Notes: generated by a model from the sequence alone, not told the origin. Shown: positions 9,143 through 62,391, numbered from the stretch's first letter. The stretch is 64,000 bases of DNA from Nitrospirota bacterium (GCA_963754875.1 CAVWHO010000016.1:758-64757), one strand, 5' to 3'. Numbers and translations: made by a program.

Positions 9143-9232
9143 AGTTCAGAGTTCACAGTTCTGAGTTCGCGAGTAAAACTTGGAACTTCATTCGAATCCG
9201 CAATTTGAACTCTGAACTTGAACTTATGAACT
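9143..9232. repeat. inverted heptamer tandem-repeat cassette (AGTTCAG / TGAACTY)
   Basis: agttcag-agttcac-agttctg-agttcgc ... tgaactc-tgaact-tgaactt-atgaact. Confidence 0.75.
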
Positions 9233-9235
9233 TTC

Positions 9236-12200
9236 ATGTCCAAACCCTTACACATACTGATCGTCGAGGATTCCGAGGACGACTGCCCTCCTGCTCCTCC
9301 GGGAGCTGCGGCGCGGCGGCTACGAACCGGTATACGAACGCGTCGAGACGCCCGAAGCCATGCAGAACGCGCTGGCGCGAAAGCAGTGGGACATCGTCAT
9401 TTCCGACTATCTCATGCCGCATTTCAGCGGTATTGCTGCCCTGGAACTCCTGAAGAACAGCGGACTCGACCTGCCGTTCATCATCGTCTCGGGCAATATC
9501 GGCGAGGACATCGCCGTGGAGGCCATGAGGGCCGGCGCCCACGACTATATCATCAAGGGCAGCCTTGCCCGGCTCATCCCTGCCGTGGAGCGGGAACTGC
9601 GCGAGGCGGAAGTGCGGCGCGACCGCAAACAGACCGAAGACCAGCTCGATCAATCGCGCCGGCGACTGGTGGAGACGCTCGAAACCATCAATGAAGGTTT
9701 TTTCACGCTCGACAGCGACTGGCGGTTCACCTATGTGAACACCAAGGCAGCCGAGATGTGGGGGAGAAGACAGGGGGGACCTGATCGGCGCGACCTTGTG
9801 GGACATCGTGCCGAAGGCAATGGGCTCCATGTTCGAGGAACAGTACCGAAAGGCCATGAAAGAACGGGTGCCCGTGCAGTTCGAAGCAATGTCGCCTCTG
9901 CTCGACGTCTGGGTCGAGGTGCGCGCCCATCCGAACGAGGACGGCATTGCCGTCTATTTCCACGACATCACGGACCGCAAAAAGGCGGAGGAGGACATCT
10001 CCCGCCTGAACCGGCTCTATTCCGTTCTCAGCAAGGTCAACGAAACGATCATCAGGATCAATGACACCGAGCAGCTGTACCAGGAGGTCTGCCGCATAGC
10101 GGTCGAAGACGGAGGATTTAAAATGGCCTGGATCGGCCTGACCGACCCCGCAACGAACGGATCGTCCCCGTCGAAAGCTACGGGGACGAGGGCGGATACC
10201 TGATGAAATCTTCCGTCGTTGCTGCCGACGTCCCGGAAGGCCGCGGCCCCACGGGCAGGGCCGTTTTCGAGGGGAAATACCTGATCTGCGACGACATCGA
10301 GCACGACCCCATGATGCGTCCCTGGCGCGACAAGGCGCTGTGCCAGGGCTTCCGCACGTCGGCCGCCTTCCCGCTCCGCTCCGGCTCCGACAGGTCATCG
10401 GCGCTTTCACCGTGTACGGGGACCATCCCCGGTCCTTCACGAAGGAGGAGATTGGGCTTCTCTCCTCCCTCGCCGACGACGTCTCCTATGCAGTCGACTC
10501 CCTGTCCAATGAACAGCTGCGGAAAGAGGCTGAAAAGAGAACAGAGGTCACCAATGCGCTGCTCAAGCTTTTTACGCAGAAATACTCGCGCAAGGAATAC
10601 CTGGATGCTGCTTGCGGACTTATCCGCGAATGGAGCGGCATTCACCACGTGGGCATCCGGCTTGCCAACCCGGACAACCAGATCCCGTTCGAGTCCTGCG
10701 AAGGATACGATAGCGCGTTCCTGAATGAAGAAAATAATCTGTCGGTCGAGAAGGACCATTGCATCTGTACGCGGATCATTGCGGGGACGCCGGAACCTCC
10801 GGACCTCGCCGCTATGACGCCGAACGGTTCGTTCTTCTCCGGCAACACGACGAGGTTCATCGATGATCTGACTGATGAAGAACGGGCGCGGTACCGCGGC
10901 GTTTGCATGCGTTACGGTTACAAGTCGCTCGCCGTCATCCCCATACGCTACCGTGAAAAACCCGTCGGCGCAATCCATCTTGCCGATGAACGGGACGGCA
11001 TGTTACAAAAAATACCGTCGTGTTCCTCGAGCAGCTGGCATACATCATCGGCGAGGCGGTCTTCCGGTTCGGCATGGAGGACGATTTGCGCAGAAACTTC
11101 GATGCCCTGCAGAGGACGTCGGAACTTCTTGAACGGTTTTTCTCCACGACCCATATGCTCGTCGCATACATAGACCAGGATTTCAACTTCATTCGCGTGA
11201 ACCGGGCCTATGCTGAGGCGGGTTACAGCGCGCCGGATTTTTACGTCGGGAAAAACCATTTTAACCTCTATCCCAATGAGGAGTACGAGGCGCTATTCCG
11301 AAAGATCGTGGAAACGGGCGAGCCCTACCTGGCCTATGAGAAGCCGTTCATGTTCACCTCCCGGCCCGAGCTGGAGGTTGCCTACTGGGACTGGAACGTG
11401 TTGCCGGTCAAGGAAGCCGACGGCCGGGTAAGCGGGCTCATCTTCACCCTCATCAATGTCACCGCACGCAAACGCGCAGAGGACGAACTGCGGCAATCCC
11501 TCGCCTACAACCGGAGCCTGATCGAGGCCAGCCTCGACCCGTTGGTCACCATCGGCCCCAACGGACAGATCACCGACGCGAACGCCGCTGCCGAAATGGC
11601 GACCGGCCATCTGCGGGATGAGCTCATCGGCACCGATTTCTCCGAATATTTCACCGAGCCCGCCAAGGCACGCGCCGTCTATCAGCAGGTGTTCCGCGAG
11701 GGCAAGGTCATGGATTATGCGCTCGAAATGCGCCACCGCACCGGCCGGGTGACGCCGGTCCTGTACAACGCCTCCGCCTATCGCGACGATGCCGGAAAGA
11801 TGATCGGCATCTTTGCCGCGGCCCGCGACATCACCGCACTCAAAGACGCCGAACGCCGCACCTCGGCCACGAACAGCCTGCTGCAGCTGTACACGCGAAC
11901 CTACTCCCGCAAGAACTATCTGGATGAGGCCGCTGAGATCATTCGCTCCTGGTGCGGCTGTCGCAATGTGGGCATACGGGTAACGGACCAGGATGAGCGC
12001 GTTCCCTTTGTGACCTGCGCCGGATTCGACAACTCCTTCATAGAATCAGAGAGCACGCTGTCCCTTGCCGTCGACCAATGCGCGTGCACGCGGGTCGTGT
12101 CGGGAATACTGGCCCCGGAAGACGCCAGTGCGATGACGGCGCAGGGTTCACTCTTCTACAACAATGCCGTGACGTTCCTGGACAATCTTCCCAGTGCGCA

Positions 12201-13470
12201 AAAAAAGCGGTTTAGGGGCACCTGTCAGCAAAGGGGGTTCAACTCGATCGTCGTGGTCCCCATCCGCTACCGGGACAAGACGCTCGGCGCCCTCCATCTC
12301 GCCGACGAACGGGAGGGGATGTTCCCCCTGAAGACCGTCGAGTCCCTGGAGGGGATGGCACTCATCATCGGGGAGGCTCTCTACCGGTTCAGCATAGAAG
12401 AACAGCAGGTTCGCCTTGCCTCAGCCGTAGAATCCACGGCTGAAGCAGTCGTCATCACCGAGCCCGCTGCAGGAAAAATTCAGTATGTAAACGCTGCTTT
12501 CGAGCAAATTACGGGGTATTCTAAAGAAGAAGTCTTGGGTAATACGCTCCATTTCATGGACAGCGGAAGGCAGGCTGGCGAGTTTTACCAGGAACTCAGG
12601 GAAACAATCAGGCGTAAAGGCGTCTGGCGGGGGCTCCTGGTCAACAAAAAAAAGGACGGTACCCAGTACTATGAAGACTGCACGATTTCTCCGGTCTGGG
12701 GGCCGTCGGGAGAGCTTTTAAATTTTGTGTCCCTCAAACGGGACGTTACGGAAAAACTGCGGCTCGAGTCCATTGCCGAGTCGGTCAGCACCATGGACAG
12801 CATCGGCTACATTTTCTCGGGCGTGCGGCATGAGATCGGCAATCCCATCAATTCCATCAACATGATCCTCGGCCTTATGAAGGCAAAATTGTCTACGCTG
12901 TCTCAGGAAGCCATCGTCGATTATCTCGACCGGATATTCGGACAGATCGGCCGGGTCGAATTTTTGCTGAGGTCACTCAAAACCTTTAACATGTACGAGA
13001 CCCAGGAGCCGCAGGACCTGAGCATCCCGGCGTTCATGGAGCAATTCCTGCCGCTCGTCAGGGAAGATTTCACGAAAAAAGGAATTGACCTCGATCTGAA
13101 GCTGGATCCCGCTGCTGAACGGATCTGCGCCGACCCCCGGGCGCTTCAGCAGGTCCTGTTGAACATCCTGACAAATGCCTCCGACGCCGTCAGCGAAAAG
13201 GAACATCCGAAGATCGAGCTGCGCATCCTCAAATCGGGCCGTATGATCCACATCCAGGCAGAGGACAACGGTTCCGGGATCCCCGAAGACAAGATGAAAG
13301 ACTTGTTCAAACCTTTTTACACGACCAAGGCCAAAGGCACCGGACTCGGGCTCGTGATCGTCAAAAAAATGCTGACAAAAATGAAAGGGACGATCGAGGT
13401 GGAAAGCCGCAGGGGCGAGGGTACCCTGGTTACCATATCGCTTCCGGAGGGAAAGCATGAGCAACGGTAA
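9236..13470 (+). CDS. hybrid sensor kinase REC-PAS-GAF-GAF-PAS-PAS-GAF-PAS-HisKA-HATPase (about 1400 aa, several frameshifts in the 5' half)
   Basis: Consecutive ORF pieces 9236, 9360, 9796, 10203, 10340 and 11020 give a continuous domain string; H-box GVRHEIGNPIN; DNGSGI, GTGLGL. Confidence 0.85.
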
Positions 13471-18799: not shown

Positions 18800-21460
18800 A
18801 TGACGGAACCCAGAAGCGGGGAAGCGCACAAAACCATCCATCTGAAGGACTATCGGAAGCCGGATTACCTCATCGAGACCGCGAACCTTGAATTCGACCT
18901 CGACGAGACGCAGACCCGCGTCAAGTCGCTCCTGACCGTCATTTGCAACCACGACAAACACGAAGGCATCCACCCCCTCGTTTTGAACGGCAGGGACCTT
19001 GCGCTCAAGGCAGTGAAGATCGACGGACAGGCACTGCGCGAGCAGGATTACAAGCTCGATGCCTCGTCGCTTACGATCCTGCCGGTCCCCGACCGCTTCA
19101 CCCTCGAAATCGAAACCGAGATCAATCCGCGGGACAATACAGAGCTCTCCGGTCTCTATCTCTCGGGTGGAAACTTCTGTACACAGTGCGAAGCCGAGGG
19201 TTTCCGCAAGATAACCTATTATCCAGACCGGCCCGATGTCATGGCCCGTTTCTTTACGACCGTCGTTGCCGACAAAAAGAAGTATCCCGTACTGCTTTCG
19301 AACGGCAACCTGATCTCGAGCGGCGATCTCAAAGACGGAAAACACGTCGCAAAATGGCACGACCCCTTTCCCAAGCCCGCATACCTCTTCGCCCTCGTGG
19401 CCGGCGACCTAGCCCGCATCCGGGACAGTTTCACGACCATGTCGGGGAAGAAGGTCGACCTGAGCATCTTCGTCCAGCACCACAACCAGGACAAGTGCAG
19501 CCACGCCATGGAGTCGCTCAAGCTTGCGATGAAATGGGACGAGGGGACCTACGGGCGCGAGTACGATCTCGACACGTTCATGATCGTTGCCGTGGACGAC
19601 TTCAACATGGGCGCCATGGAGAACAAGGGCCTGAACGTCTTCAACTCGAAGTACATCCTTGCGAAGCCCGAGACCGCCACGGACGCGGACTACCAGGGCA
19701 TCATGGGCGTTGTGGGACATGAATACTTCCACAACTGGTCAGGCGACCGTATCACGTGCCGCGACTGGTTCCAGCTCTCGCTCAAGGAGGGCTTCACGGT
19801 GTTCCGGGACCAGCACTTCATGGAAGACATGACCTCGCGTGGCGTGAAGCGCATCAGCGACGTGAACGTCCTCCGCACCCACCAGTTCCGCGAAGACGCA
19901 AGCCCCATGGCGCACCCGGTGCGGCCCGAGTCCTACGTAGAGATCAACAACTTCTATACCCTCACCGTTTACAACAAGGGCGCCGAGGTGATCCGGATGA
20001 TGCGGACCCTCCTTGGTCCTGAAAATTTTCGCAAAGGCACGGACCTCTATTTCTCGCGCCATGACGGGCAGGCGGTCACGACCGACGATTTCGTGAAGGC
20101 CATGGAGGACGCCACGGGCGTCGACCTCGGCCAGTTCAAGCTCTGGTATTCCCAGGCAGGAACGCCGCAACTGCGGATCACCCGGACTTATGATGAAAAG
20201 GCGAAGACTTATACGCTCGCGATCAAACAGACCTGCCCTCCCACACCGGGGCAGCCCGGGAAGAAGCCCTTTCATATCCCCGTTGCAATCGGTCTGCTCG
20301 GCGAGGACGGACAGGACCTGGAGCTGAAGATTGCAGGGACGACAGGGGGACGGGGAGCCGATGGAACAAAAGTAATCCAGTTAAGGAAGGCGGAAGAAAC
20401 CTTCGTGTTCACCGGCATTCCCCATAAACCGGTGCCCTCCGTTCTGCGCCACTTTTCAGCGCCGGTCAAGGTTGACATCGATCTCACCGACCAGGAGCGG
20501 CTGTTCCTCATGGCCAGTGACTCCGATGAGTTCAACCGATGGGACGCTGGTCAGCAGCTTGCGGTCAAGCTCATCCTTCAGTTGATCAGGGACATGCAGC
20601 AGGGCAAAAAACTCAGGCTCGATCCGCAGTTCAGCAGCGCCTTCAACAAAATTCTGGGAAGCTCCATGGATGACAAGGCCTTCCAGGCTTTTGCCCTCTC
20701 GCTTCCTGCGGAGACCTATCTTGCAGACTTCATGGACGTGATCGACCCGACGGCAATCCACGAGGCGCGCAGGTTCGTGCAGAAAACCCTTGCAACGGAG
20801 CTGCGGGACACGTTCTTTGCGGTGTATTACACGAACCAGGATTCAGGGCCGTATAAGGTGGACCAGTCCTCGGTGGGACGGAGAAGCCTGAAGAATACCT
20901 GTCTCACCTATCTCATGGAACTGGACGAGCCCGGGGTCCGGAGGCTCTGCATGGAACAGTTTCGGACAGCGGGGAACATGACCGATGTGATGGCAAGCCT
21001 CGCGAACCTGGCGAACACCGGCTGCCCGGAATGCCCTGATGCGCTTGCGGCCTTTTATGAAACGTGGAAGGACGATCCGCTCGTCATGGACAAGTGGCTT
21101 TCGATCCAGGCCCTGTCGCGACTGCCGAACACGCTCGAGACCGTAAAAGCGCTCATGAGCAATCCGGTGTTCAACATAAAGAACCCGAACAAGGTCCGCT
21201 CCCTGATCGGCGCTTTTTCCGCCAATTCCGTGCGGTTCCATGCCCCGGACGGCGAAGGATACGCCTTCCTTGCGGACCAGGTCCTGGCCCTCGATCTCAT
21301 GAACCCCCAGATCGCCGCACGCCTCGTCTCGGCTTTCACTATGTGGAAACGGTATGATAAAAAAAGGCAGGCGCTCATGAAAGCGCAGCTTGAAAGGATA
21401 ATGCACGCCCCGAAGCTGTCGAAGGACGTGCATGAGATCGTATCGAAGAGTTTGGTGTGA
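18800..21460 (+). CDS. pepN: aminopeptidase N (M1 family)
   Basis: [28 protein letters not shown]...[12 protein letters not shown]. Confidence 0.98.
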
Positions 21461-21468
21461 GAGGAACG

Positions 21469-21521
21469 GTCTCAAGTCATTAAAAGTCTCAAGTTTCAAG
21501 TCCCAGGTCTCAGGTTCGAGG
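21469..21521. repeat. heptamer tandem repeats (TCTCAAG family)
   Basis: gtctcaag...agtctcaagtttcaagtcccaggtctcagg. Confidence 0.7.
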
Positions 21522-21560
21522 TTAAGTCCGTTTTGCTGGTTCAGGGTAGGTTCGCAATTA

Positions 21561-21629
21561 CCTTTGCTGGTTCAGGATTGAAGCCTGAACCGCCCATTAA
21601 TGTTTTGGTTCAATCTTCAAGATTGAACC
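21561..21629. repeat. twin-hairpin REP-like element, copy 1
   Basis: ggttcaggattgaagcctgaacc plus ggttcaatcttcaagattgaacc; near-identical to 22262-22329. Confidence 0.85.
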
Positions 21630-21635
21630 AACATT

Positions 21636-21720
21636 AGGACTGAGTCGGCCCTGACGTTCGCACTTACCTCAGCACTCAGTCCTGCTTTTGGTTTTACTCA
21701 GTCCTCCTCTCTCAGTCCTT
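21636..21720. repeat. AGGACTG / CTCAGTC heptamer cassette overlapping the 3' end of the receiver gene
   Basis: aggactgag ... ctcagcactcagtcctgcttttggttttactcagtcc; the last part is also at 37344-37369. Confidence 0.75.
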
Positions 21721-22165
21721 GTTTCTTACTCGGTCCAGCCCATTTCTCCAGTTCAATCCGTATATTCTTCGCGAATATATCCAGGTCCACGGACTTGTTC
21801 AGAAAACTATTCGCACCTGCTTTAAATGAGGCCTCTTTGTCCGATTCCAGGTCCGAATGCGTGACGATCACCACCGGTATACCGCGGAGGCGCGTGTCGT
21901 TTCGTATTTCCCGCAGCACGTCGAAGCCGTCGAGCTTCGGCATCTTCAAATCGAGGAATATAAGCGACGGCGGCGTTGTCGCTCCCCTGAGAAAGGAAAG
22001 CCCCGCATCGCCGCTCAAGGCCGTATCAACCCGGATCTCCCGGCTGATCTTCGCCAGGACCATTTTCGTCAGCAGGATATCGTCCTCGCTGTCGTCGATG
22101 ATGAGAATCGATTTCGGATTTCGGATTGCGGATTGCGGAGTTTTGATGCTAGCGTTATTGCTCAT
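21698..22165 (-). CDS. single-domain response regulator (Rcp1-like) with repeat-derived termini
   Basis: ILIIDDSEDD, FLDLKMP, GANSFLNK; N-terminal PQSAIRNPKS is encoded by TCCGCAA repeats. Confidence 0.9.
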   Translation of the reverse strand: MSNNASIKTPQSAIRNPKSILIIDDSEDDILLTKMVLAKISREIRVDTALSGDAGLSFLRGATTPPSLIFLDLKMPKLDGFDVLREIRNDTRLRGIPVVIVTHSDLESDKEASFKAGANSFLNKSVDLDIFAKNIRIELEKWAGPSKKQGLREED

Positions 22166-22397
22166 TTACGTGCGCCTTTCGCCGTTCTGATCGATGAAAT
22201 AGTTATCGCCAGCAACTCATCCGCTTCCTTACATAAGGTTCGCCGCATTGTTGGATGAAACCCTTTGCTGGTTCAGGCTTGAAGCCTGAACCGCCCATTA
22301 AGGTTTTGGTTCAATCTCCAAGATTGAACTAGCGATGGAACTTTATTATAGTCAATGCAAATTGCTGAGTCCGTTTTCTCAGGTCATCCTTGTTCAC
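22162..22397 (-). pseudogene. four-helix-bundle (23S rRNA IVS-like, TIGR02436-type) gene remnant with its centre replaced by a REP-like element
   Basis: N-part 22397-22329 (GTG) MNKDDLRKRTQQFALTIIKF; C-part about 22236-22162 LCKEADELLAITISSIRTAKGARK*. Both resemble the family's termini. ATGA overlap with the receiver gene. Confidence 0.75.
22262..22329. repeat. twin-hairpin REP-like element, copy 2
   Basis: 3 differences in about 68 bp versus copy 1. Confidence 0.85.
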
Positions 22398-22430
22398 GTA
22401 TTTTCTCCCATGCTTATGTGTTCATTTCTC

Positions 22431-22527
22431 AATCCGCAATTGTTTCTTCCCGGATGCCCATTCCGCAATCCGAAATAGTCTTTCTTCGATGTTTATTCCG
22501 CAATCCCCATTCCGCAATCCGAAATCA
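22431..22527. repeat. TCCGCAA heptamer repeats, inverted relative to 22110-22140
   Basis: ttccgcaatccgaaat ... ttccgcaatccccattccgcaatccgaaatc versus gatttcggatttcggattgcggattgcgga. Confidence 0.8.
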
Positions 22528-22531
22528 GATG

Positions 22532-25500
22532 CTACCCCAGCGTGAAAAACACCGTCGCTCCCTTCCCCACTTCCCCTTCGGCCCAGACTGTGCCGCCGTG
22601 GCGGCGGATGATGCGTTCGACGATGGCGAGGCCGATTCCCGTGCCCTCGAACTCCTTTTCCGTATGCAGCCGCTGGAACGGGAGGAACATCTTGCCCGCG
22701 TAGGTCTGGTCGAACCCGGCGCCGTTGTCCCTTACGAAATAAACTGGTTCGGAGTCAGAAGCTTTTGAAACTTGAGACTTGGAACTTGAAACTTGAGACT
22801 TTATAACCCCAAACTCGATCCGGGCATTCGTCGTTTTCGACGTGAATTTCCAGGCGTTCTCGACCAGGTTCGTGAGCGCGACCCTGATCAGGTTCGGGTC
22901 CACGGAGGCGCGCAGGCCTTCGGCAACAGCGACTTCGACGCTCCTGCCGGGGTCCGTTTCGCGGAGGCCGGCCGCAAGCGAGGAAACAAGCTTGCTGAGA
23001 TCATAGTCCACCCGGTCCATATCCTGTTTTGAGATCCGCGAAAGGCGCAGAAGGTCCTCGATGAGGTCGGTCATTTTCTCCGAGGCGTTCGTTATACGCG
23101 TCAAATAATCCTTCGGCTGGTCTTCCAGCTTGCCGCCGAAATCCTCGATGAGGATTTTGGAGAAACCGGCCATGGTGCGGAGCGGCGCCCGCAAGTCATG
23201 GGACACCGAGTAGATGAAGGCTTCCATCTCCTTGTTCGCGGATTCCAGCTCCTTGTTCCGCGAGGACAGATCTTCGGTCACGTTCAGGAGCTCAGCCTCC
23301 GTCTTCTTGCGCTCGGTGATGTCTCGCAATATTCCAAGCAGGCGGCCATCGGGCAGCTGTCGGCCGACGACTTCGCCCGTGAACGTCGAACCGTCCTTAC
23401 GACGGAATTGCCATTCGTTCGTCGTAACCGAGCCGCTGGCCAACGCCGACATCTGGGCGGGCATGCGCGAGATGTCTGCAGGGGAAACCACATCGGTGAC
23501 CGACAGCCGGCAGACTTCTTCATGCGTGTACCCGAGCATCCGTGCGCCCGCGGTGTTGACGTCGATATAGCGGCCCTGCGCGTTAGCCAAAAAGATGCCG
23601 TCCACGGCCTGCTCCACCAGCAACCGGAAGCGCTCCTCGCTCTCACGAATAGCTTCCTCCGCCCGCTTGCGCTCGGTGATGTCGAAGCTGAAGTTCAGGA
23701 CCCGGTATACCCGTCCTTCCTTCAGCATGGGGACGAACGTGAGGATCAGGTCATACCGGCCCGTGGGCATGGTGAGCGATGATCTCGACAGTTTGCGACG
23801 CGCTTGTTTCATAGGTACGCATCAAGCGCAGGCCAGAAGGCGCTCCGCGTCTCCTCGTCGTACATCTCGTCGACCCGGCGCCCGACAAAATATTCCAGCG
23901 GTTTTCCGACGCGCCGGAGCCCGGCCGCATTCACGAACTCGTATCTTCGATCGGCGTCATAGATGGCGATCGCATCGGGCATGTTGTCCATTGCCAGACG
24001 GAACAGCTCCTCGCTCTTTCTCAGCTCTTCCTCCGCGCGTTTGCGCGCGGTGATGTCGAACGCATAGATCCGCACGACGTTGAACTGGGGAGCGAGATGA
24101 ACGGTCTCGCCGAAGATCCGGTCCTTGATCGAAACTTCGCGGTACAGTATCGCTTCGTTTTTATTTTCCAGGTCTTTTAAAATATCATCGATATCCGCGG
24201 GCAGAAAGAGGAGCAACGTTTTCCTTAGTCCGTCCCGAGTTCCGTCAGGATCTTGAGCGCTAGCCGGATTGCAGAAGGTGACGCTGCCCGCCGGGTCCAC
24301 CTCGCAGATGGGATTCGGGTTCAGCTGCGGGAAGGAGGCGAGATGTTTTATCTGTTCTTCAGCCTTGTGCCGTGCGCTGATGTCGTGCGCGATCTTTGAA
24401 ACGCCGACCACCCTGCCGTTTGCGTCCCTGATCGGCGAAAAGGTGAGTGAGACGGGAATGATTAGCGCCGTCTTTCCGCATACGTACGGTCTCGAAATGC
24501 TCGATGTGCTCCCCTGCTGCGATCCTTTTGAGAATTTCCGGGACCTCGTCCACGTGCCCGGGAGGAACGAGGAAGGAAATATTTCTGTTGATCGCCTCCT
24601 GGGCTGTATACCCGAAGATCTTCTCTGCCCCGGCGTTCCAGGTCTGGATCATGCCGTCCAGGTCCTTGCTCATGATCGCTTCGTCGGCGCTTTCCACAAT
24701 GGCCGACAGCCGGCCCTTGATTTCTTCGTCCCGCTTGCGTTCGGTAATGTCCGTATACGTGACGACCACGCCTTCGATGCGGCTGTCCGACGTACGATAG
24801 GGGAGCGTGGCGCGGATGTACCAGACGCCATCGACCGCAATCTCCTTCCGAATCGGCACGAGACTGTCGAGGACCGACTGGGCGTCGGCTATAAGGTCCG
24901 TCCCGAGGTTCTCCTGCGACATGTCGATGATCGGCCTGCCCACGTCCGAAGGAAGGAGCTTCAGGAGCTTCGAGCATAGCGGGAGTGAAACGCTTCACGC
25001 GAAACTGATGGTCGAGAAAGATGGTGGGGATGTTGGTGCTCGTGAGGAAATTGTTCAGGTCGTTGTTCGTTGCGTCCTGCTCCTCGATCTTGGCCTGGAG
25101 CTGGGTATTGACCGTGAGCAGTTCTTCGTTCAGGGACTGGAGCTCCTCGCGCGACGTTTCGAGCTCCTCGTTCGCCGCCTGGAGCTCTTCGTTCGAGGAC
25201 TGAAGTTCCTCGTTCAAGCCCTTGAGCTGTTCGATGTTGCTCTGGAGGTCCGCACGCGTTGCTGAAAGCTCGCTTTCGAGCTGACGCACGACGGTCTCGT
25301 CGACAGCTGCGGTCTCTGCAACAGGGTGCTCCTCTGCTTGGGGAACGCCGCGCTTCTCCTGGAAAACGAGGAGAAAAATGTTCTCACGCAATTTCGAGAT
25401 ACGGAGGATGACGGTCCTGTTGGCCTGCGCATCTTCTTTCCCCTTTGTGAAGGCGGGGCCGCCCTTTTTCGCTGCCTTTCGCGGAGAGGGGCTTTTTTTA

Positions 25501-27329
25501 CTTCTTTTTTTTCCAGGGGGGGACTGAGGGGGCTGTTCGCCCTCATTGGGAAAGCTCACCCTGATGGAGACCGGCTTCGCTTCCTGCGCAGCCCGGTAGA
25601 TCGCCCCGCGGACCCTGCTGCGGAGGTTCTCCGGAAGCAGGAGCAGCAGGTTCTGCGTTGGCAACCCTCTCGGCTGAAGCAAGTATTTGTTCGTTGGGCC
25701 GTTGTGGTACAGGATGTCGTAGTTTTGGTTGAGCGCGATAGCCGCGGGTGAGTATTCTTCGAGCAGGGAATTCTGGATGAACTCGGTGATCGTGGGCTGG
25801 TTCGCAGCTGCCAAAGCCTGGCGCGAGGGCACCGACAAAGCGCGTTCGGCGGCAAAAGGCACGGAAAGGGAAAGCCGGGTCGGGGCCGTGCGTTCGAGCT
25901 TCCGGTAGACGCGGCATTTTTTATTGCCCACGCTCCTGAAGAGCGCGCTGTTCCTGCCCGTGGACTCTGCGTTGCCGAGGAAGAGATACCCTCCGTCCTT
26001 GAGGGCGTAATGGAAGAGCGCGATGCTCTTCTCCTGAGCGTCGGGTTCGAGATAGATCAGGAAGTTCCGGCAGATGATGAGGTCAAGCCGGGAAAAAGGC
26101 GGGTCAATCATCAAGTCCTGCTTGGCGAAAACAACGCATTCCCGGATTTCCTTGTTGATGACGACGGACAGGCCGTCCTCGGAGAAGGTGAAATACTTGC
26201 GCAGGAGGTCTGCCGGGACATCGGCTGCAATGCTTGCCGGATAGGTCCCTTCCCGCGCTTTTTCGAGCGCCCGGTCGTTCACGTCCGTGGCAAAAACCTG
26301 GAGCTCGCGTTTTTTGCCCGCGAGGCTAAGCTCGTGGTGGAGCAGCATGGCAATGGAATAGGCTTCCTCGCCGCTGGCGCAGGCCGGGGACCAGACGCGG
26401 ACCGGAGCGTCTTCGTTGCTCGCCACGAGGTGCCGTATCACTTCGATCTTGAGCGCCCTCCATGCAAGCTGGTCCCGGAAGAAGGACGTGACGCCGATCA
26501 TGAGGTCAAAGGCGAGCGCGGACGCTTCCTGTTCCCTGTCCGTCACGACCTGGATATAGTCCTGAACCGAGGTCACGCCGCTCAAATACATCCGTCTCCT
26601 GATCCTGCGGTTCACGACGTTCTGTTTGTAGTGATTGAACCGGTAGCCGGTCTTCTGCCGGATCAAGCTGTAAAAGGTCTCGAATTGCGCGGCAGTGACC
26701 ACGTCGTCACGGCTCATGCGGACCGCGTCTGCTATGGCAAGTTTCACGATCTCCCGGGAGATGTCTTCAGGCTTTAATACCTCATCCACCTGGCCTGTGC
26801 CGATCGCCGCAAGCGGCATGCCCGGAAACTCGGCAGTGGACGGGTCCTGCACAAAGACGGTGCCGCCGCTGCTTCTGATCGCCTGGATCCCCCGTGCGCC
26901 GTCCGTGCCTGCGCCGGAGAGGATAACGGCAATTGCACGGTCTTCCGCTTCTTCGGCCAAAGAGATAAAAAATTCATCAATGGGGAGATGGACATGCTCC
27001 TGCTGCGGAGCGGTTAAGTGAAAAAAGCCGTTTTGAATTTTTATTTCTTTTCCCGGCGGACAGAGGAAGAGCTTCCCCGGGAGCGCCTCCATATTGTCCT
27101 CAATTTCGAGGACCTCAAGATGGGGCGTTCCCTTGGCCAGCAGTTCGGGAAGAAGGCTGCGGTGCGTGGGAGACAGGTGCTGCAGAAAGACGATGGTAAA
27201 GCCGAACTCCTGCGGCAGGGCCGCCAAGAAGCACTTGAGGGCGTACAGGCCGCCTGCAGAAGCGCCTATGCCGACTATGGGCAGGGTGGCGTTTGGAGCG
27301 CTATGTCCAGGCGTCTTTTTATGTTCCAT
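22532..27329 (-). CDS. CheB-CheR fusion with coiled coil, multiple PAS domains and C-terminal histidine kinase (about 1600 aa; frameshifts near 24960, 24460, 24240, 23810)
   Basis: CheB GASAGG/QHL/SGAGTDG; CheR GVTSFFRD, ACASGEEAYS, CRNFLIY; EELQSSNEELQ repeats; PAS pieces 24359-24943 and 23809-24411; H-box YSVSHDLRAPLR. Confidence 0.88.
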
Positions 27330-27425
27330 ATCAACTTGTTATCCAGGGATTTGGAGGAATGCAAGAATATGCAAATAATTTATCACAGCAACAATGCAAA
27401 GTAAACTCAAATTCAGGACGAACTT

Positions 27426-27530
27426 AGGACGGAGTGAACAACAGGACTGAGGGGAAAGTGCTGAGGACTGAGTAAATGCATAATGCTTGGCTTTTCACTC
27501 AGAGTCCCCGTTACTCAGTCCTCAGTCCTG
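27426..27530. repeat. inverted AGGACTG/CAGTCCT heptamer cassette
   Basis: aggactgaggggaaagtgctgaggactgagtaaa ... ttactcagtcctcagtcct; a 34-bp arm is nearly identical to 37260-37293. Confidence 0.8.
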
Positions 27531-27534
27531 CTTC

Positions 27535-28446: not shown

Positions 28447-28527
28447 TATTCCTCGCAATCGAGAATGTAAATCTTTTGCAAATGCGGACCGATACAGAGA
28501 GGGCTTAACCCAAGCTGAGAAACAATG

Positions 28528-29040: not shown

Positions 29041-29182
29041 ATCTTCTGATAGGAATTTTTCGTAGAGTAAACCAAAAGCTGGTTAGAAAGGCCCTTTCCT
29101 GCGGCCCGGCTCGTAAAGTACGTTACGGCCTGACTTCTTGAATTTTGAGTCAAGCTTTAGATCAAAATGAAAATCAATCTTC

Positions 29183-30127: not shown

Positions 30128-30265
30128 CAGTTACACGCTTTTTTCCTTTTTCAATTGGATGCCGAACGATTGAGTCCCGGATAGCACGTGCTGTCCTACC
30201 ACCAGAAGGCTGCTTGGAGCATCATTGATGGTCTAACTAGGTTTTACATATCGGACGCTGTGGAA

Positions 30266-49499: not shown

Positions 49500-50351
49500 T
49501 CAGAATCCTTTTAGTACCGTCGTCTTGTAAAACTCACGCTGGTTCTCATAATCCTGCATCCCTGCTGCCACGAAACCAAAGGGTGGGCTTTGCTTGATCA
49601 CCGCCGCGCTGGCAGCGAGGATCTTCCGCCCCTCCGGGTCCGAAGCCATACCAACGAGTGCATCGCGGACGGCCTTCACCTTCTTCCGGTTGACCCGGCG
49701 GTTGACCGCTATGGGCATATCGGAAAACTTGGAGGAAGACCACAGTACACGGTATTTGATGTGCTCCCGCATCGCAAATTCCTGCATAACCTGCGAGTTG
49801 ATTGACGCGGCAGGCACTCTCCCTGCTTTCAACTGGCCCATGGCTCCTTCCTGGTTTCCCGCGAACACCGGCTCCACGTGAATGCCTTTCCGAATCAGGG
49901 CATCCATCGTCACGGTATAAGCGACGAACGCCGTTTCGGACGGGAAAGCGACCTCCCTGCCTTTGAGGTCCTCCAGGACACGGATCGGCGTAGTATCGAG
50001 CACTACGATCTGTCCCTGGATCAATTCCTCGACAGGACGGGCAATCACCTGGTAACCTGCCTTGGATATACGAGGGATGAAAATATGGTTCGAAAACACA
50101 AAATCGAACTCTTTCTGTTCAGTCAATCTGTCCGTTTCCTGGACGGTTTTCCCCATCTTCAACTGAAGCACGACCCCGCTCTTTTTGCTCACATAGTCCA
50201 GAATAGGATTCCAGTATTGCGCCGTCAGCACCGGGTTTCGCTGGTTCAGAACGCCGAAGGTGTGGACCTGCTCTCCGGCGAATGCCGTACTCATGAACAG
50301 CGGGAGCAGCAATATTGCAACCGGCTTTATCATTCGTTTCGGTTTCAACAT
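49500..50351 (-). CDS. PhnD/SsuA-type substrate-binding protein coupled to the kinase
   Basis: Signal peptide; FGVLNQR...YWNPILDY, DLKGREVAFP, FAGNQEGA; stop is 3 bp before the kinase ATG. Confidence 0.85.
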   Translation of the reverse strand: MLKPKRMIKPVAILLLPLFMSTAFAGEQVHTFGVLNQRNPVLTAQYWNPILDYVSKKSGVVLQLKMGKTVQETDRLTEQKEFDFVFSNHIFIPRISKAGYQVIARPVEELIQGQIVVLDTTPIRVLEDLKGREVAFPSETAFVAYTVTMDALIRKGIHVEPVFAGNQEGAMGQLKAGRVPAASINSQVMQEFAMREHIKYRVLWSSSKFSDMPIAVNRRVNRKKVKAVRDALVGMASDPEGRKILAASAAVIKQSPPFGFVAAGMQDYENQREFYKTTVLKGF

Positions 50352-50556
50352 ACCTTCCTTATATATACTCAGCGGCGGCTTGACCGCGGATGTCCTGCTA
50401 TCTGTCCCATTATGCAGCTGGCCCTCGTGACCGTGACTGTTGCAGAACCCCGCTTTCGGGAACCTGCAATGACTGAGTAGAAATGTCATCAAACAGGATA
50501 TTTATCGACAACACATGCGCGAGCGCATTCATTTAGGATCTTTGTATGATTTATTG

Positions 50557-51075
50557 CTATGGTTTAACTTGCTCGGCAAATCTTCCCCGATAGGTAGCAT
50601 GACCATCGCACTTCTCAAATATAAATTGGCAAATCTTGGTGCCAGGATACAGGGCCAACGGCCCATGCCCTAAATTCACTATTTCAAGGACCTGATGGTT
50701 GGAGATGCCCGGATGCATAAAACCGGCCGTAACATGAACAGCAAGTCCATACCGTGCGAATCTGCTTCTTCCTTCAAGCCGACCGGACATATTATCGGCA
50801 AGAGTAATTTTTTCTTTTGTGATTCCGAGGATCATCTCTCCCGCTTGAATAACGATATAGCCGCCGTCTTTAACGTGAACATCCTTGGATATCGCTTGAA
50901 AGAGAGAATCATTCTTTACGTGATAGACCTTTGAATGTTTTTTAAAAATTCTGAAATCATTCCCCAGCGTCAGATCGATTGATCCGGGCCCGATCTGCGC
51001 TTTGTCCAGGGGTTCAATGATGATCAATTTATTTTTTAAAGCTTTTTCGATTTCTTTCCCGACCAATACGCTCAT
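50557..51075 (-). CDS. dcd: dCTP deaminase
   Basis: PGSIDLTLG, EGRSRFARYGLAVHVTAGFMHPG, LEIVN, KICQ. Confidence 0.92.
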   Translation of the reverse strand: MSVLVGKEIEKALKNKLIIIEPLDKAQIGPGSIDLTLGNDFRIFKKHSKVYHVKNDSLFQAISKDVHVKDGGYIVIQAGEMILGITKEKITLADNMSGRLEGRSRFARYGLAVHVTAGFMHPGISNHQVLEIVNLGHGPLALYPGTKICQFIFEKCDGHATYRGRFAEQVKP

Positions 51076-51229
51076 CGTTCTCTTCCTCTCAATGAATACG
51101 GCTTTTATTCTCTGCACGTGCTTCTTACGTCCATCATGAATGCCCGCTCAGTCCGTCGCGTACCTTACAGGTCCAACAACACTTATCGACAGTGTCGTCC
51201 GGGAGGTAACTACAGGGTCACGGGCTATC

Positions 51230-51370
51230 TCAGGAGGACCTGCGGTTCCAGGGATATCTTCTCTCTTTTCCTTTTCTCCGATCAGCGCCCTCGTAGTTCG
51301 GATCATTACCTTTTCTCCGGTCTTCACCTGACCTTCGGTTATTCTCTGACCTGTGTTCTTTTTTCCCCAT
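51230..51370 (-). CDS. small Arg-rich protein of (D/E/N)RR repeats
   Basis: MGKKEHRSENNRRSGEDRRKGNDPNYEGADRRKGKERRYPWNRRSS; SD-like gaggg. Confidence 0.55.
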   Translation of the reverse strand: MGKKEHRSENNRRSGEDRRKGNDPNYEGADRRKGKERRYPWNRRSS

Positions 51371-51893
51371 AAGCCCTCGCTGTCTTTTGTAAAGCGGGCG
51401 TACAAGCCCTACACATCCACACCGTGACTGAAGCATATCAACGGCAAATTAATCTGCAAAAACTGTCGGTTCTTCAATGATATCCGTGCGTCAGCTATAT
51501 ACTTTTCGGCGGTGATTTTTGCATAATGGTTAAACGATACTCTCTGATTGAAGTGTAGCTAAATGACAGGAGGGAGTCAATTTAAAACGACAGAATACAG
51601 TGCCGGGTACAGGGCTGCGTTCTGCGTTTTGTCCCCTGGGCGGGATTGATACGGCAGCATATCTTGCCCCGCACTTCAGGAACCCTGTTTTGCTTGCGCA
51701 AGTAATTTCTGTTTGTCACTTCGGGAGGCGGGCCTGTGCGGAACGATACCGCAAGAGCGAACGAGCGATGATCCGCATTCCCAGGGTAGCGGGCGCCGGT
51801 CAGTTCGTAATGGGGTAAAGTTTCTTCCGGAGCGGCAGATCCCCGGTTATGTCCCGGCGGGAGGGCGAAGACAGCAGCAAGGGTGTACGGAAT

Positions 51894-53015
51894 TCACAAC
51901 GATTTTCTGCGGTCCCCGCCGAATCGTCTGTCTCTCAAACTTCGCCGTTCAACAAACTTTTCAGGCCCTGTTGCAACGGGCCCTTCCCAGCTGCCGAGAC
52001 CGCCGCGGAGACACTTTGCGTTAAAGCCGCGGTTATTTAAAAGGAAGGCGGCAACCATGCCGCGTGAATCGTTGGTACAGTAGGTAATATAGGCTTTCGT
52101 GGTATCAAGGTCGGCATATTTCTGGCGAAGGGCCTCGACAGGAATGCTCAGCGCGCCCTCAATGTGCTCTTGCTCATATTCAATCGGGACCCGGGCATCG
52201 ATGATCACATACTTATCCCGGTAGTGCTGAACAGAGATGTCCTCGGTAAACATATTGTCGAGAAAGGCCGACTTCAGGATCTGGTCGAAATCTATCTTGT
52301 CCAGGGCATACACCGTCGTCTCCTCCAGTGCCCGGCAGGTCGCATTCCGGGGGTCGTCGCGGATAAGCGCTTCTTCTCCGAACCCGGCCCCTTCAGCCAG
52401 TACGGCCACTTGTTTTTCTTCGCCCTCTCCTTTACTCTTTTTTAAAACGGACACGCGGCCCGATTTCACGATGTAGTAGTAGTCCCCCTTTTCGCCCTGG
52501 ACAATGATATCTTCGCCGAGGGCATACGTTTTTTCAGTCATTCGCGCCAGCAAAGCATACATCCTGTCCGGCTCCAGGAGGATAAAGGGCTGAAGCGTCT
52601 TTATTTTTTCGTACTGTGAAATTTCTCCGGCTTTCTTGAGGAGAACGTTCTTGAATGCGCTCTCGCGGTGCAGGATACTATCAAAATCCGGCTTTGGCAG
52701 CTGATAGAGGGTGACTTCGTTGAGGGCCCGGACCGAGGCCGAGTGTATGGAGCTCGTGAGGAGCGCGACCTCGCCGAATCCCTGGCCGCTGGTGATAATC
52801 GACAGCTTCGCCAGTCCGTATTTCGTATTCTTGGTTACTTCGAGCCTGCCCTGTTTCACAAAATAGAATGAATCGGCCAGATGGCCCTCTTTTGATATTT
52901 CCGTACCTTTGGGATGGGTTACTACGTTGAACTGACGGGCAAGAATTTCGAGTGAATCCTGGGACAGACTTCTAAAATAATTATGCTTTTTCAATTCATA
53001 AACCTGCAACGACAT
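51894..53015 (-). CDS. tandem cNMP-binding domains plus rhodanese domain protein
   Basis: FGEVALL..HSASV and FGEEALIRDDPRNATC; IDAR..EY...HIEGA, YCTNDSR, LRGG; SD gaggag. Confidence 0.88.
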   Translation of the reverse strand: MSLQVYELKKHNYFRSLSQDSLEILARQFNVVTHPKGTEISKEGHLADSFYFVKQGRLEVTKNTKYGLAKLSIITSGQGFGEVALLTSSIHSASVRALNEVTLYQLPKPDFDSILHRESAFKNVLLKKAGEISQYEKIKTLQPFILLEPDRMYALLARMTEKTYALGEDIIVQGEKGDYYYIVKSGRVSVLKKSKGEGEEKQVAVLAEGAGFGEEALIRDDPRNATCRALEETTVYALDKIDFDQILKSAFLDNMFTEDISVQHYRDKYVIIDARVPIEYEQEHIEGALSIPVEALRQKYADLDTTKAYITYCTNDSRGMVAAFLLNNRGFNAKCLRGGLGSWEGPVATGPEKFVERRSLRDRRFGGDRRKSL

Positions 53016-53213
53016 ACTATTCTCCTCATGAAATGGATAGGGATAAGACTGCATGACTCAGTTCGATAGGATGTGCTAAAAGCAGTCAAACGGTGTTAAT
53101 ATCCGGCGTTCCAAAGCCCGAACAAGAGAGATTTACTTAATCACTTTTTTAAAAAAATATCAACGTAAAGTTCCAATTTTAGCTGGGTATTTCTAGGGTA
53201 GCCGTTGCATAGG

Positions 53214-53588
53214 TTAGCCGTGAAAACAAGAAATGCCGCGTCGTACCTCTTCGAGCCGGGTCTTGGCATCCGGTTCTGCGACAAAAAAAGTCTCGAGCCT
53301 GTCACAGATATAGTCGGCACAATGTGCACAATTCTCGACCCCCTTCTGCAGGGCGCACTTTCTGATTTTGCAGGCCTGGGAAGCAGTGAAGAGCCTTCCT
53401 CGTTCGGTCCGGCAGCCGTCGCAGTCCGATATGTCTTCCGGTGCGTACATCACCCCGTACTTCTCGTTACAAATGTGGGCGATATGAGTTCTCATTCTTG
53501 TTTGTTGTTCCTCGTTGTCTTCCCTTGTTGCAAGATAGATAGGGCAGGTATGACAGACCAAACCGCAGAAAGCGATCGTTTCTTTCAT
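53214..53588 (-). CDS. DUF3795-like Cys-rich protein
   Basis: AFCGLVCHTCP, CDGC, IRKCA, NCAHCADYICD. Confidence 0.82.
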   Translation of the reverse strand: MKETIAFCGLVCHTCPIYLATREDNEEQQTRMRTHIAHICNEKYGVMYAPEDISDCDGCRTERGRLFTASQACKIRKCALQKGVENCAHCADYICDRLETFFVAEPDAKTRLEEVRRGISCFHG

Positions 53589-53853
53589 CTGTTTCCCTTT
53601 CAAACGGGTTATCAATGTATGCCCAATAAGCTGACTGGCTTAGGAGATTCGAGACTAGTAAAAGTCTATCTAAAGGGCTGGTGCAAGTCAATGCAAAATA
53701 ATACAACAGAGTCGGACCCTCGGCACGATCGTCCATCCATAAAATGTAATACCCCGGTAACACGCAAAGTTGCACGAAGCGTTGACAAGCACCTATGCAG
53801 CGTTATATTTAAAGTAGGTAATTTTATAGACAAAAAGAAAAGAGGCGATAACG

Positions 53854-54201
53854 ATGAAAAAGATTTTAGCCATTTTGATGGGAATGGCGTTTATCCTTAC
53901 CTTGGGGTTGGCGTTCGCCGCAGAAGACATGTCGGGGCCCCAGGGTACAAGTGATAAAATTATTCGCGATGAGGATATCCAGCATCTTGACATGGATCAA
54001 GATCGCGCAACGGTCAACCAAATGCCCACGGAATCAGGTACCGAAGGCTCGGGTGCAGGAGGAGTGAACAAGGATTCCGACAGTACGTACAAGGATAGTG
54101 ACCAAAGCACAGCTCCTCTTGAGAAGACCCCGGCAAAGCCAGGCGCTGAAGGGTTGGGAGCGGGCGGTTCGAGCAACGATTCTTATAGTCCCGGTTATTA
54201 A
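53854..54201 (+). CDS. secreted low-complexity hypothetical protein
   Basis: Sec signal MKKILAIL...AFA; acidic; internal repeat GTEGSGAGG / GAEGLGAGG. Confidence 0.75.
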   Translation: MKKILAILMGMAFILTLGLAFAAEDMSGPQGTSDKIIRDEDIQHLDMDQDRATVNQMPTESGTEGSGAGGVNKDSDSTYKDSDQSTAPLEKTPAKPGAEGLGAGGSSNDSYSPGY

Positions 54202-55140: not shown

Positions 55141-55280
55141 TAACGGCTCGCGAAAAGCATCTTTCGCAGAGATCTGATGATTCCAAACAGCATTGACAGC
55201 TCCCTTGGTCAGTCCAGTGCTTCTGTCTTAAGGTTAACAAAAGTTCGTCGGAGTGTCAATGCGAAGCCGTGTTAAAAACT

Positions 55281-55370
55281 AGTCTCAAGTCTCAAGTTTT
55301 AACCCCTCAAGCTTGAACCCCCAGGTCAGACTCGTGGTTTCACGACCTGAGACTTGAGACCTGAGACTTG
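55281..55370. repeat. inverted TCTCAAG/CTTGAGA heptamer cassette
   Basis: agtctcaagtctcaag ... cctgagacttgagacctgagacttg. Confidence 0.78.
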
Positions 55371-55417
55371 CAGCACGAAAGCGAGGTTTCGAAGAGGTGA
55401 TTGGGGGAAGCCGGCAA

Positions 55418-58668: not shown

Positions 58669-58703
58669 TTTTTCCTCAAATGATTTTTATCAACTTCAAA
58701 AGA

Positions 58704-58816
58704 TTCAGGGGAAAAGGGGAAGCGAGAGGCGAAATGGTGAAATAGAAGACTTAGTTTCAAAACTTAGTCTCTGATTCATTTCTCCCTTTCTCCGTGTTTA
58801 TCCCCATTTTCCTGAA
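58704..58816. repeat. inverted purine/pyrimidine 8-mer cassette inside the glt operon
   Basis: ttcaggggaaaagggga... / ...tccccattttcctgaa. Confidence 0.55.
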
Positions 58817-58837
58817 AGATTCTGAATTCTATTTTTT

Positions 58838-62193: not shown

Positions 62194-62278
62194 AATCTGT
62201 TCCTCCTTGATTGCGGTATGAGCCGGCCGCGCTCCCGGCCGTTTATGTAGATCACCATACCAGATCAAAGGAACGATG

Positions 62279-62297
62279 TCTGTGACTTTGTCACAGA
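62279..62297. promoter_or_regulatory. Crp/Fnr-type operator upstream of the DUF2892 gene
   Basis: TCTGTGAC-TTT-GTCACAGA; spacer is one base shorter than TGTGA-N6-TCACA, possibly a homopolymer error. Confidence 0.65.
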
Positions 62298-62303
62298 GGT
62301 ACC

Positions 62304-62391
62304 GAGGACGACGGATGACCGCTCACTCCGTTCGCTACGACGATGGACGAAAAATCTTTCCTTCACTCGTCCGTCGTCCGTCGTCTCTCGT
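62304..62391. repeat. inverted GACGAYG / CGTCCGT heptamer cassette
   Basis: ggacgacggatgac..cgacgatggacga / ctcgtccgtcgtccgtcgtctctcg. Confidence 0.7.

Follow-up and report, generated by a model that had tools for sequence, protein, structure and literature searches.

Repetitive extragenic palindromic (REP) sequences, the hairpin-forming REP doublets (REPINs), bacterial interspersed mosaic elements (BIMEs) and miniature inverted-repeat transposable elements (MITEs) are the most frequent non-coding repeats in bacteria, with effects on the stability of mRNA, on termination and on the rearrangement of genomes. Here we describe palindromic repeats of a different build, with arms of tandem 7-9-mers and many unit families, in a 64-kb stretch of DNA from an uncultured Nitrospirota bacterium (GCA_963754875.1, CAVWHO010000016.1:758-64757; the whole stretch is called the window below, and positions are counted from its first nucleotide). 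In each of these cassettes, a spacer separates a left arm of 7-9-nt units from a right arm made of the reverse-complement units. Reading the sequence at the places where a preliminary description of the window had reported about ten of them, we found 11 paired cassettes and 2 solo arrays. As that description also held, the architecture recurs with different units: at least six unrelated unit families are present within the 64 kb.

The cassette design is already known from a single catalogue, that of Geobacter metallireducens, where, in 2009, it was entered under 'regulator sites' and left unexplained (Aklujkar et al. 2009, PMC2700814). The catalogue comprises 24, 21 and 8 pairs of sites in classes 1, 2 and 3, built of the units GTTGCTYN (x4), TCTCCGTS[Y] (x3) and MTYCTGA (x5), respectively. 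The sites of a pair lie on opposite strands at a variable distance, for example between proB and proA; two insertion sequences are located at a constant distance from class 1 sites, and the authors propose that the sites bind unidentified global regulators, possibly IHF/HU. In Geobacter bemidjiensis, multicopy sequences occur in 12% of intergenic regions, and one family lies inside genes without frameshifts (PMC2996986). The window cassettes resemble the Geobacter sites in being opposite-strand pairs of 3-5 tandem 7-9-nt units at variable distance. The likeness extends to their setting, as the Geobacter sites are intergenic and number tens of pairs per genome, with other families in genes without frameshifts. 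The arm unit TCTCCGTG[C] of three related loci (L001, L005 and L011, introduced below) equals the class 2 consensus of PMC2700814. However, the TCTCCGTG unit is confined to these three relatives and the families of the window differ, and the hosts are Nitrospirota and Verrucomicrobiota, unlike Geobacter, which belongs to Desulfobacterota. Tandem matches to the class 1 and class 3 consensus are at chance level in the window (1 against 1.84 and 7 against 5.47 expected), and the 8 matches to class 2 (2.75 expected) all lie outside cassettes; membership of the window cassettes in classes 1-3 by sequence was therefore rejected. The passages of PMC2700814 on these sites contain no analysis of hairpins, of filled and empty junctions or of replacement of the kind given here. 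Among the full texts searched, none has explained the Geobacter sites since 2009, and none treats inverted tandem-unit cassettes as a class, offers a mechanism or reports cases outside Geobacter. The preliminary description was thus fair in stating that there is no established mechanism; its suggestion of an undescribed system is not entirely correct, given the G. metallireducens catalogue of paired 7-9-mer sites.

REP units are imperfect palindromes of 20-40 nt with an unpaired GTAG or CGTC tag at one end; they are located between unidirectional and convergent open reading frames (ORFs), some of them in genes, with several types per genome (Di Nocera et al. 2013, PMC3733652; for the definition of REPINs see Bertels & Rainey 2011, PMC3116915). 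The window cassettes share much with REPs, REPINs and BIMEs. They are non-coding, extragenic inverted doublets with a spacer, form hairpins in 11 of 11 cases, occur between unidirectional or convergent genes in several families per genome with some copies in genes, and have arms that are conserved and spacers that are not. The arm itself is unlike a REP: it is a direct tandem array and not a palindrome (the array at 21484 is unfolded alone), GTAG...CTAC is found in 0 of the 11 cassettes, a lone CGTC in 1 and a tag on both ends in 0. With MITEs the cassettes have in common the terminal inverted repeats, the lack of coding sequence, a size within 50-500 bp, and presence or absence at an orthologous site. 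Foldback elements are eukaryotic transposons with internally repetitive terminal inverted repeats. Like MITEs, Foldback and Galileo elements, the cassettes possess inverted repeats of short tandem units, variable arm length and short forms that are non-coding; unlike MITEs and Foldback elements, they have no visible target-site duplication (their flanks have diverged) and no known autonomous copy or transposase. A bacterial counterpart of Foldback or Galileo was not found in the searched full texts.

The heptamers of the cyanobacterial short tandemly repeated repetitive (STRR) sequences are direct repeats. TAACTGA direct heptamer repeats are found in Beggiatoaceae, cyanobacteria and Bacteroidetes (MacGregor 2015, PMC4679880). 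They resemble the cassettes as intergenic tandem 7-mers of several types per genome, patchily distributed across phyla, whose neighbours have shorter, repeat-free intergenic regions. In contrast to the cassettes they are direct (169 direct sets against one indirect set in the Guaymas genome; PMC4679880), often stand just upstream of start codons and do not form hairpins. Integron attC sites and CRISPR arrays were dropped as explanations: the cassettes are flanked by genes of core operons, and their arrays, unlike direct and evenly spaced ones, are inverted.

Architecture and dispersal of the cassettes

Tandem Repeats Finder (TRF), run at a score of at least 30, returned 42 rows. Of the 11 pairs it flagged 9 in one arm or more, three of these (9143, 29166 and 55281) in both. 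It flagged nothing at 21636 or 58704, where unit periodicity is weak; the corresponding segments, 21626-21735 and 58695-58825, are nevertheless clear hairpins. Among the 25 short-range inverted repeats listed of a total of 69 pairs (numbered with the prefix I), the five longest as well as I9, I15 and I20 are cassettes. We also used a strict detector, which requires an exact 6-mer recurring within 6-24 nt and its reverse complement likewise recurring not more than 300 nt downstream. It found 7 matches in the window, compared to a mean of 0.21 (maximum 2) in 100 dinucleotide shuffles. Five of these are named cassettes; the other two are unrelated coding or palindromic words, at 24954-25168 in the CheB-CheR gene and at 36099-36305 (TTCCGG). 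Under tighter settings the detector found 4 matches against 0.05 expected in the 64 kb. Other detectors performed poorly: pairing of TRF arrays recovered one cassette only, a periodicity-segment finder recovered none, and a multi-diagonal seed detector gave 87 matches against 78 in shuffles, no improvement on chance. None of our counts relies on these three.

All 11 pairs fold as long hairpins in RNAfold, with z-scores of -2.4 to -6.8 on at least one strand (60 shuffles per cassette), so that the arms pair far above chance, as had been claimed before. The solo array at 21484 (21470-21530) does not fold alone (z +1.0/-0.7). A chance origin of the cassettes is rejected by the shuffle counts of the strict detector together with the fold z-scores. 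We also rejected an assembly artefact, because the architecture recurs in assemblies made independently in several studies, among them long contigs. Of the two strands, the sense strand gives the more stable fold in 6 of the 11 window cassettes and in 4 of 8 junction alleles of relatives. This lack of strand bias means that there is no G-U signature of mRNA selection and no sign of sense RNA as the selected strand; it agrees with elements that insert in either orientation or are symmetric. Although both strands of a palindrome read the same, the arm on the 5' side is purine-rich in 26 of 30 cassettes and in 9 of 11 unit families, a trend that at the family level is not significant and only suggestive. 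Intrinsic terminators are not enriched in 20001-40000 (20 sites against 22.3 expected), and one weak site alone (21652-21636) touches a cassette; canonical rho-independent terminators, with a GC-rich hairpin, a 3-8-nt loop and a T run, were accordingly rejected as an explanation. So was a known curated RNA family, since Rfam 15 gave no match at gathering score and 3 weak matches at E<=1, none of them on a cassette.

The preliminary description placed the cassettes at gene junctions inside operons, and the positions agree with this. There are 30 intergenic gaps with a length of 80 nt or more, and 10 of them (about a third) contain a cassette: 9 of these fall in the 24 co-directional gaps, 1 in the 3 convergent ones and none in the 3 divergent ones. 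The eleventh cassette (37236) is located in a 65-nt gap. Several arms extend into the first or last codons of neighbouring ORFs, and the in-frame arrays in a protein loop measure 6 x 7 nt. Cassettes are tolerated only where harm is small, namely in co-directional or convergent gaps, in the end codons of ORFs and as in-frame arrays.

The genome harbours several unit families side by side, and copies within a family are scattered. An alignment of cassettes 27405-27545 and 37236-37366 extends over their full length, spacer included, and contains stretches of 34 nt (94% identity) and 20 nt (100% identity); in both cassettes, the inner units are clean and the outer ones degenerate. A 27-nt segment at 21675-21701 is identical to 37343-37369, the AAGTCTC family is present at 21484, 22765 and 55281, and a further genome has the GATTGCG array as well (L006, 2527-2549, 96%). 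Cassettes can also be nested. In L019 a second cassette is found within the loop of the first, and two window cassettes contain other palindromic elements: GTCATTCC...GGAATGAC in 31334-31514, and a double-hairpin repeat in 22105-22531.

Cassette turnover at the fdhB-nrfD junction and cassettes in other phyla

The window carries a selenocysteine formate-dehydrogenase operon, fdhA-fdhB-nrfD...fdhE, which provides a fixed site for comparison. Using the FdhA protein as query and keeping one genome per species, we gathered 74 loci. The closest FdhA relatives (76-93% identity) are uncultured Nitrospirota, and none of the 74 loci is identical to the window. The fdhB-nrfD junction is readable in 15 of the loci and in the window. 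Among these 16 genomes it is filled in 9 (the window, L001, L004, L005, L006, L008, L011, L012 and L019), collapsed to a short hairpin of the CACAGAG/CACGGAG family in one (L003), and empty in 6 (L007, L009, L010, L015, L039 and L040), where the spacer is missing and the fdhB stop overlaps the nrfD start (ATGA). The filled/empty polymorphism that the preliminary description called for therefore exists. In nucleotide trees of fdhAB and nrfD the filled and empty states are interspersed, with both outgroups empty, which implies several gains or losses.

The units at the junction differ as well. CACAGAG/CACGGAG 8-mers occur in L001, L003, L005, L011 and L019, CGCGAAG units in L006 and L008, CGCAGAG in the window, and TCAAAT-type units in L004 and L012. 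The coding flanks of L001 and L008 are ~97% identical, up to the last fdhB codons and from the nrfD ATG onward, whereas their ~190-nt intergenic cassettes, of the CACAGAG and the CGCGAAG type, cannot be aligned. In the close pair L004/L006 both flanks are homologous and the cassette is the sole difference (TCAAAT vs CGCGAAG); judging by the sequence, what look like remnants of an outer CRCGAAG cassette enclose the TCAAAT cassette of L004. The downstream ribosome-binding site is kept directly after the right arm. Cassettes are thus gained, lost, collapsed and replaced at fixed gene junctions.

We compared cassettes of one type in L001, L005 and L011. The arms are 76-96% identical (the right arm 88-96%), against 70-79% for 300 nt of the flanking coding DNA to each side, and the loops are 38-57% identical against a shuffled mean of 43%; comparisons with L019 give lower arm values because its arms were defined shorter. 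The higher identity of the arms than of the coding flanks means that the sequence of the arms is held, and not only their pairing. Two of the loci, L008 and L002, come from one metagenome-assembled genome. L002 stops 207 nt past fdhB, in an apparent further array; the coding DNA of L008 nearly equals that of L001, and its intergenic segment is like that of L006. The co-occurrence of L008 and L002 indicates that the bin holds two fdh operons or two populations.

Applied to the other loci, the strict detector found 5 matches in 339 kb of Nitrospirota-like loci (0.9 expected) and 10 in 220 kb of Verrucomicrobiota (1.15 expected). The 9 matches in 265 kb of high-G+C Chloroflexota (4.35 expected) and 17 in 244 kb of high-G+C Actinomycetota (4.75 expected) were discounted, since dinucleotide shuffles lose codon structure. 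Verrucomicrobiota provide textbook examples: Chthoniobacterales have AAAGCAGG 8-mers, and Ca. Udaeobacter has CAACGCY 7-mers. Their fdhA-fdhB junction is readable in 12 of 14 loci and contains tandem-unit cassettes in 4, GTAG...CTAC-tagged, REP/REPIN-like long palindromes in 3 (L055, L062 and L074), related untagged palindromes in 2, a weak array in 1 and nothing in 2. The occurrence of tagged palindromes and cassettes at one junction in sister genomes shows that cassettes share a niche with ordinary REP-like elements. Tandem-unit cassettes are hence present in at least two of the phyla studied here, with Geobacter adding a third through the literature. In a Chthoniobacterales locus (L054, 19232-19535), a tRNA-Sec gene (19337-19435, minus strand) has a AAAGCAGG cassette on each side.

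Nature and origin of the cassettes

The dispersal of the cassettes, their gain, loss and replacement, their nesting, the niche shared with REPs and the absence of a strand bias suggest that they are, on balance, probably REP/MITE-like: small non-coding intergenic palindromic repeat elements whose arms are 7-9-nt direct-repeat arrays. They are best read as functional analogues of REP/REPIN/BIME or MITE-type elements. Arrays of such an element would lengthen and shorten by slippage, and spacers would turn over fast, as expected at the centre of a palindrome. Its spread would require either recombination with other copies or a trans-acting enzyme encoded elsewhere, for instance a transposase of the tyrosine or another type. 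When transcribed, the 25-40-bp stems would form intercistronic hairpins and might act as RNase III substrates or as 3'-end protectors. Long stems are known substrates of RNase III, and cleavage of the cassettes is what this established property would predict. An effect of the stems on expression would then be a consequence, and not necessarily the reason for their existence.

Several observations weigh against a REP/MITE-like nature. No target-site duplication is visible when four empty and four filled alleles, with their diverged flanks, are aligned; in the 60 window ORFs scanned there was neither a transposase domain nor one of RAYT, the tyrosine transposase whose gene REPs flank; and no arm pair flanks a gene in the 339 kb of relatives. 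The arms lack the REP tag GTAG/CGTC (none of 11 has it on both ends), and a single arm is not palindromic. The family copy numbers refer to the 64 kb by which the source genome is represented, and relatives are much sparser, with 5 strict matches in 339 kb compared to 4 in the 64-kb window. Finally, the arms of L001, L005 and L011 are conserved above their coding flanks (76-96% against 70-79%). A purely selfish, decaying insert would not be conserved in this way, which points to sequence-specific recognition or continuing homogenisation. The missing target duplications, mobiliser and tag, along with the tight conservation of the arms, keep alive two other readings, in which the cassettes are RNA hairpins or protein-binding arrays.

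According to the former, the cassettes would be intercistronic mRNA hairpins that arose in place and were selected by the host to set relative expression within operons, through RNase III or exonuclease barriers, partial terminators or translational uncoupling, with tandem units resulting from stems that grow by slippage, the other arm then changing to compensate. The folding of all 11 pairs (z -2.4 to -6.8) is consistent with this, as are the location of 9 of 11 between co-directional genes with the ribosome-binding site kept past the right arm, the pairing preserved between fdhB-nrfD alleles of different sequence, and the 1-2 substitutions that separate CACAGAG, CACGGAG, CGCGAAG, CGCAGAG and CGCAAAG, which can share one cassette. 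However, the sense strand is not the better folder (6/11, 4/8), the terminator scan does not single out cassettes (20 vs 22.3 expected), and it is the sequence of the arms that is conserved, not merely their pairing. Homologous copies with their spacer at unrelated loci, abrupt swaps between ~97% identical flanks and six relatives without any spacer at fdhB-nrfD also argue against an origin in place, and we regard selected mRNA hairpins as unlikely. Conservation of the arms above the coding flanks, with spacers at shuffle level, would be explained if the arms were rows of sites for a nucleoid protein or global regulator, or for a repeat-reading RNA- or single-stranded-DNA-binding protein, with two arrays brought close to each other by each inverted pair. 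The Geobacter sites of classes 1-3 have been interpreted in this way, as possible IHF/HU sites (PMC2700814), and their class 2 consensus equals the TCTCCGTG[C] unit of L001, L005 and L011. Yet at least six unrelated unit families in 64 kb would demand as many proteins, a period of 7-9 bp sets successive sites on different faces of the duplex, divergent gaps, where promoters are expected, are free of cassettes (0/3), and a junction may be empty or carry a REP instead. Since class 1 and 3 matches in the window are at chance and the class 2 matches (8 vs 2.75) all off-cassette, the link to the Geobacter sequences does not extend to the window, and protein-binding arrays appear distinctly unlikely.

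The head-to-head layout raises the question of repair. After a double-strand break, for example from hairpin cleavage at the centre of a palindrome, short repeats might be added by templating to both 3' ends, and joining would leave inverted arrays, with an outcome like telomere fusion. The like composition of both strands (purine-rich 5' arm in 26/30 cassettes and 9/11 families), the clean inner and degenerate outer units of 27405-27545 and 37236-37366, and the unrelated spacers of different alleles would suit such scars; but the purine bias is not significant at the family level, the homologous spacers of dispersed copies fit copying of whole elements better, and solo arrays inside genes are left unexplained. 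We know of no bacterial enzyme for templated repeat addition at breaks, and consider this origin very improbable. The preliminary description had seen in the cassettes emptied shells of a cargo-carrying excisable element, with RNA processed like an rRNA intervening sequence. The filled/empty polymorphism and swaps at a fixed site agree with it, and the stems are, by established knowledge, long enough for RNase III. Cargo, however, is nowhere to be found: the spacers of compact cassettes are 9-120 nt long and non-coding, no arm pair brackets a gene in the 339 kb of relatives, and a cargo-gene remnant in the one 290-nt spacer (22140-22430) was rejected, as this segment has no reading frame of more than 58 aa outside known genes. 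To our knowledge, bacteria also have no joining step for an excised intercistronic RNA segment, which leaves the shell model little credibility. In a related search for autonomous copies, inverted arrays up to 5 kb apart in the window and 41 loci yielded the 22105-22531 pair only; in this DNA, no distant pair of arms encloses a gene.

More speculatively, the cassettes might be kept by a dedicated system that reads or writes short repeats, be it a foldback-type mobile element whose recombinase recognises repeats or the templated addition of repeats where DNA breaks, common to Nitrospirota, Verrucomicrobiota and Geobacter. The tight arm sequence, the clean exchange of cassettes, the nested palindromes and the purine-rich 5' arm on both strands prompt this idea, which we hold to be improbable.

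The cassettes are of consequence for the genomes that carry them: they occupy a third of the larger gaps, reshape gene ends and insert in frame into a kinase. In metagenome-assembled genomes of these groups, they account for breaks between contigs and for unusual ends of ORFs. At the fdhB-nrfD junction, empty, filled, collapsed, nested and swapped states form a natural series, which makes element turnover directly testable and gives a handle on the Geobacter 'regulator sites'.

Individual cassettes and neighbouring genes

The cassette at 9143-9233 consists of about four AGTTCAG units, a 36-nt spacer and about four (C/T)TGAACT units (inverted repeat I9; z -3.9/-3.4), and takes up the entire 100-nt gap between two plus-strand response-regulator genes. 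The most complex region lies downstream of pepN. A solo array of four AAGTCTC units (21484-21512) is positioned directly past the pepN stop codon (21460), and is inverted with respect to an array at 22773-22802 (93% identity, 1.26 kb apart). Cassette 21626-21735, of the AGGACTG family, has one left unit and 4-5 spaced right units (I15; z -2.4/-3.0); it is located between the convergent pepN and response-regulator genes, and the stop codon of the regulator (21698) is in its right arm. The wide cassette GATTGCG/TCCGCAA (22105-22531; z -5.9/-6.5) has arms at 22105-22139 and 22430-22531, 290 nt apart. Its left arm, with four GATT(T/G)CG units (22110-22139), codes for residues 9-19 of the response regulator 21698-22165, and its right arm, with five to six TCCGCAA units (22430-22527), ends at the stop codon of a histidine kinase. 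The spacer contains the 5' end and start codon of the response regulator and one copy (22262-22329) of a 68-nt double-hairpin repeat. The other copy of this repeat (21561-21628, plus strand) likewise adjoins a cassette; the two are 95.6% identical in direct orientation and are associated elements, not cassettes. The repeat comprises two perfect small hairpins, GGTTCAGG.TTGAAGCCTGAACC and GGTTCAATCT.CAAGATTGAACC. Inside the histidine-kinase gene (22532-23812), a heptamer array AAGTCTC/AAGTTTC (22765-22801, minus strand) leaves the frame open and forms a 14-residue insertion rich in Ser, Gln and Lys (SQVSSSKSQVSKAS) in the ATP-binding (ATPase) domain. The insertion is missing from a 60%-identical kinase paralogue at 7755-8579.

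Two cassettes of the AGGACTG/CAGTCCT type are located between the fdhE stop and the cheB-cheR start (27405-27545; z -3.2/-5.8) and between a histidine-kinase stop (37366) and the DUF1646 start (37236-37366; I3, I5; z -4.0/-4.3). The 8-mer cassette at 29160-29285 (CACGAAGC/CACTAAGC/CACAAAG vs CTTCGTGC/CTCCGTGC; z -3.4/-5.8) lies between ODP-family and DUF2306 genes and corresponds to I1, the longest inverted repeat. The fdhB-nrfD gap is filled by an 8-9-mer cassette of the CGCAGAG/CGCGAAG type (31334-31514; z -5.7/-4.4), whose loop harbours a different kind of palindromic element, with the ends GTCATTCC...GGAATGAC (~31395-31456). A further copy of this element, at 35979-36164, is inside a 22-nt inverted repeat downstream of DUF1646, and it has a 24-nt match in a relative (L033, 1845-1868). 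The 9-mer cassette at 35822-35932, with three CGCAAAGRN units per side (I2; z -6.8/-5.4), separates DUF1646 from the fdhA promoter region; in 17 relatives, the 1.1 kb around the fdhA start is free of cassettes.

Towards the end of the window, cassette 55275-55375 (AGTCTCA x3 / TGAGAC(T/C) x3; I4, I20; z -3.6/-4.8) covers the last codons of a DUF6901 gene (stop at 55326). The long imperfect hairpin at 58695-58825 (z -3.0/-2.8), between two glutamate-synthase-like genes, has a purine-rich left arm (GGGGAAAA/GGGGAAGC...). The last cassette (62296-62397; z -4.9/-2.0), with GACGACG/GACGATG on the left and CGTCCGT/CGTCGTC on the right, is situated between crp-like and ygaP-like genes.

The window has a G+C content of ~56% and encodes two-component and PAS kinase genes, pepN, a cheB-cheR fusion, and oxidase, transporter and glutamate-synthase-like genes; no tRNA or tmRNA was found in it. 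The fdhA gene (32330-35572, minus strand) is a single gene with an in-frame TGA at 34967-34969, read in the context ARIUHSS, which formate dehydrogenases have as their selenocysteine motif. A weak SECIS_3 match at 34914-34972 (24.7 bits) is under the gathering score. Several genes are read in overlapping frames. This is the case for the response-regulator-like gene 3' of cassette 9143 (9236-10064, plus strand; frames 9236-9694 and 9360-10064) and for a GAF-PAS kinase (10340-13470, plus strand; 10340-11173 and 11020-13470). A P-type cation ATPase (42539-45074, minus strand) is present as two overlapping ORFs, 43860-45074 and 42539-43945, and represents a frameshift, a pseudogene or an assembly error. 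In 50001-54000 the G+C content falls to 0.48-0.49, compared to ~0.56 in the rest of the window, and the ORFs comprise a dCTP-deaminase-like gene and several without a Pfam match. This suggests that the stretch may have been acquired recently.

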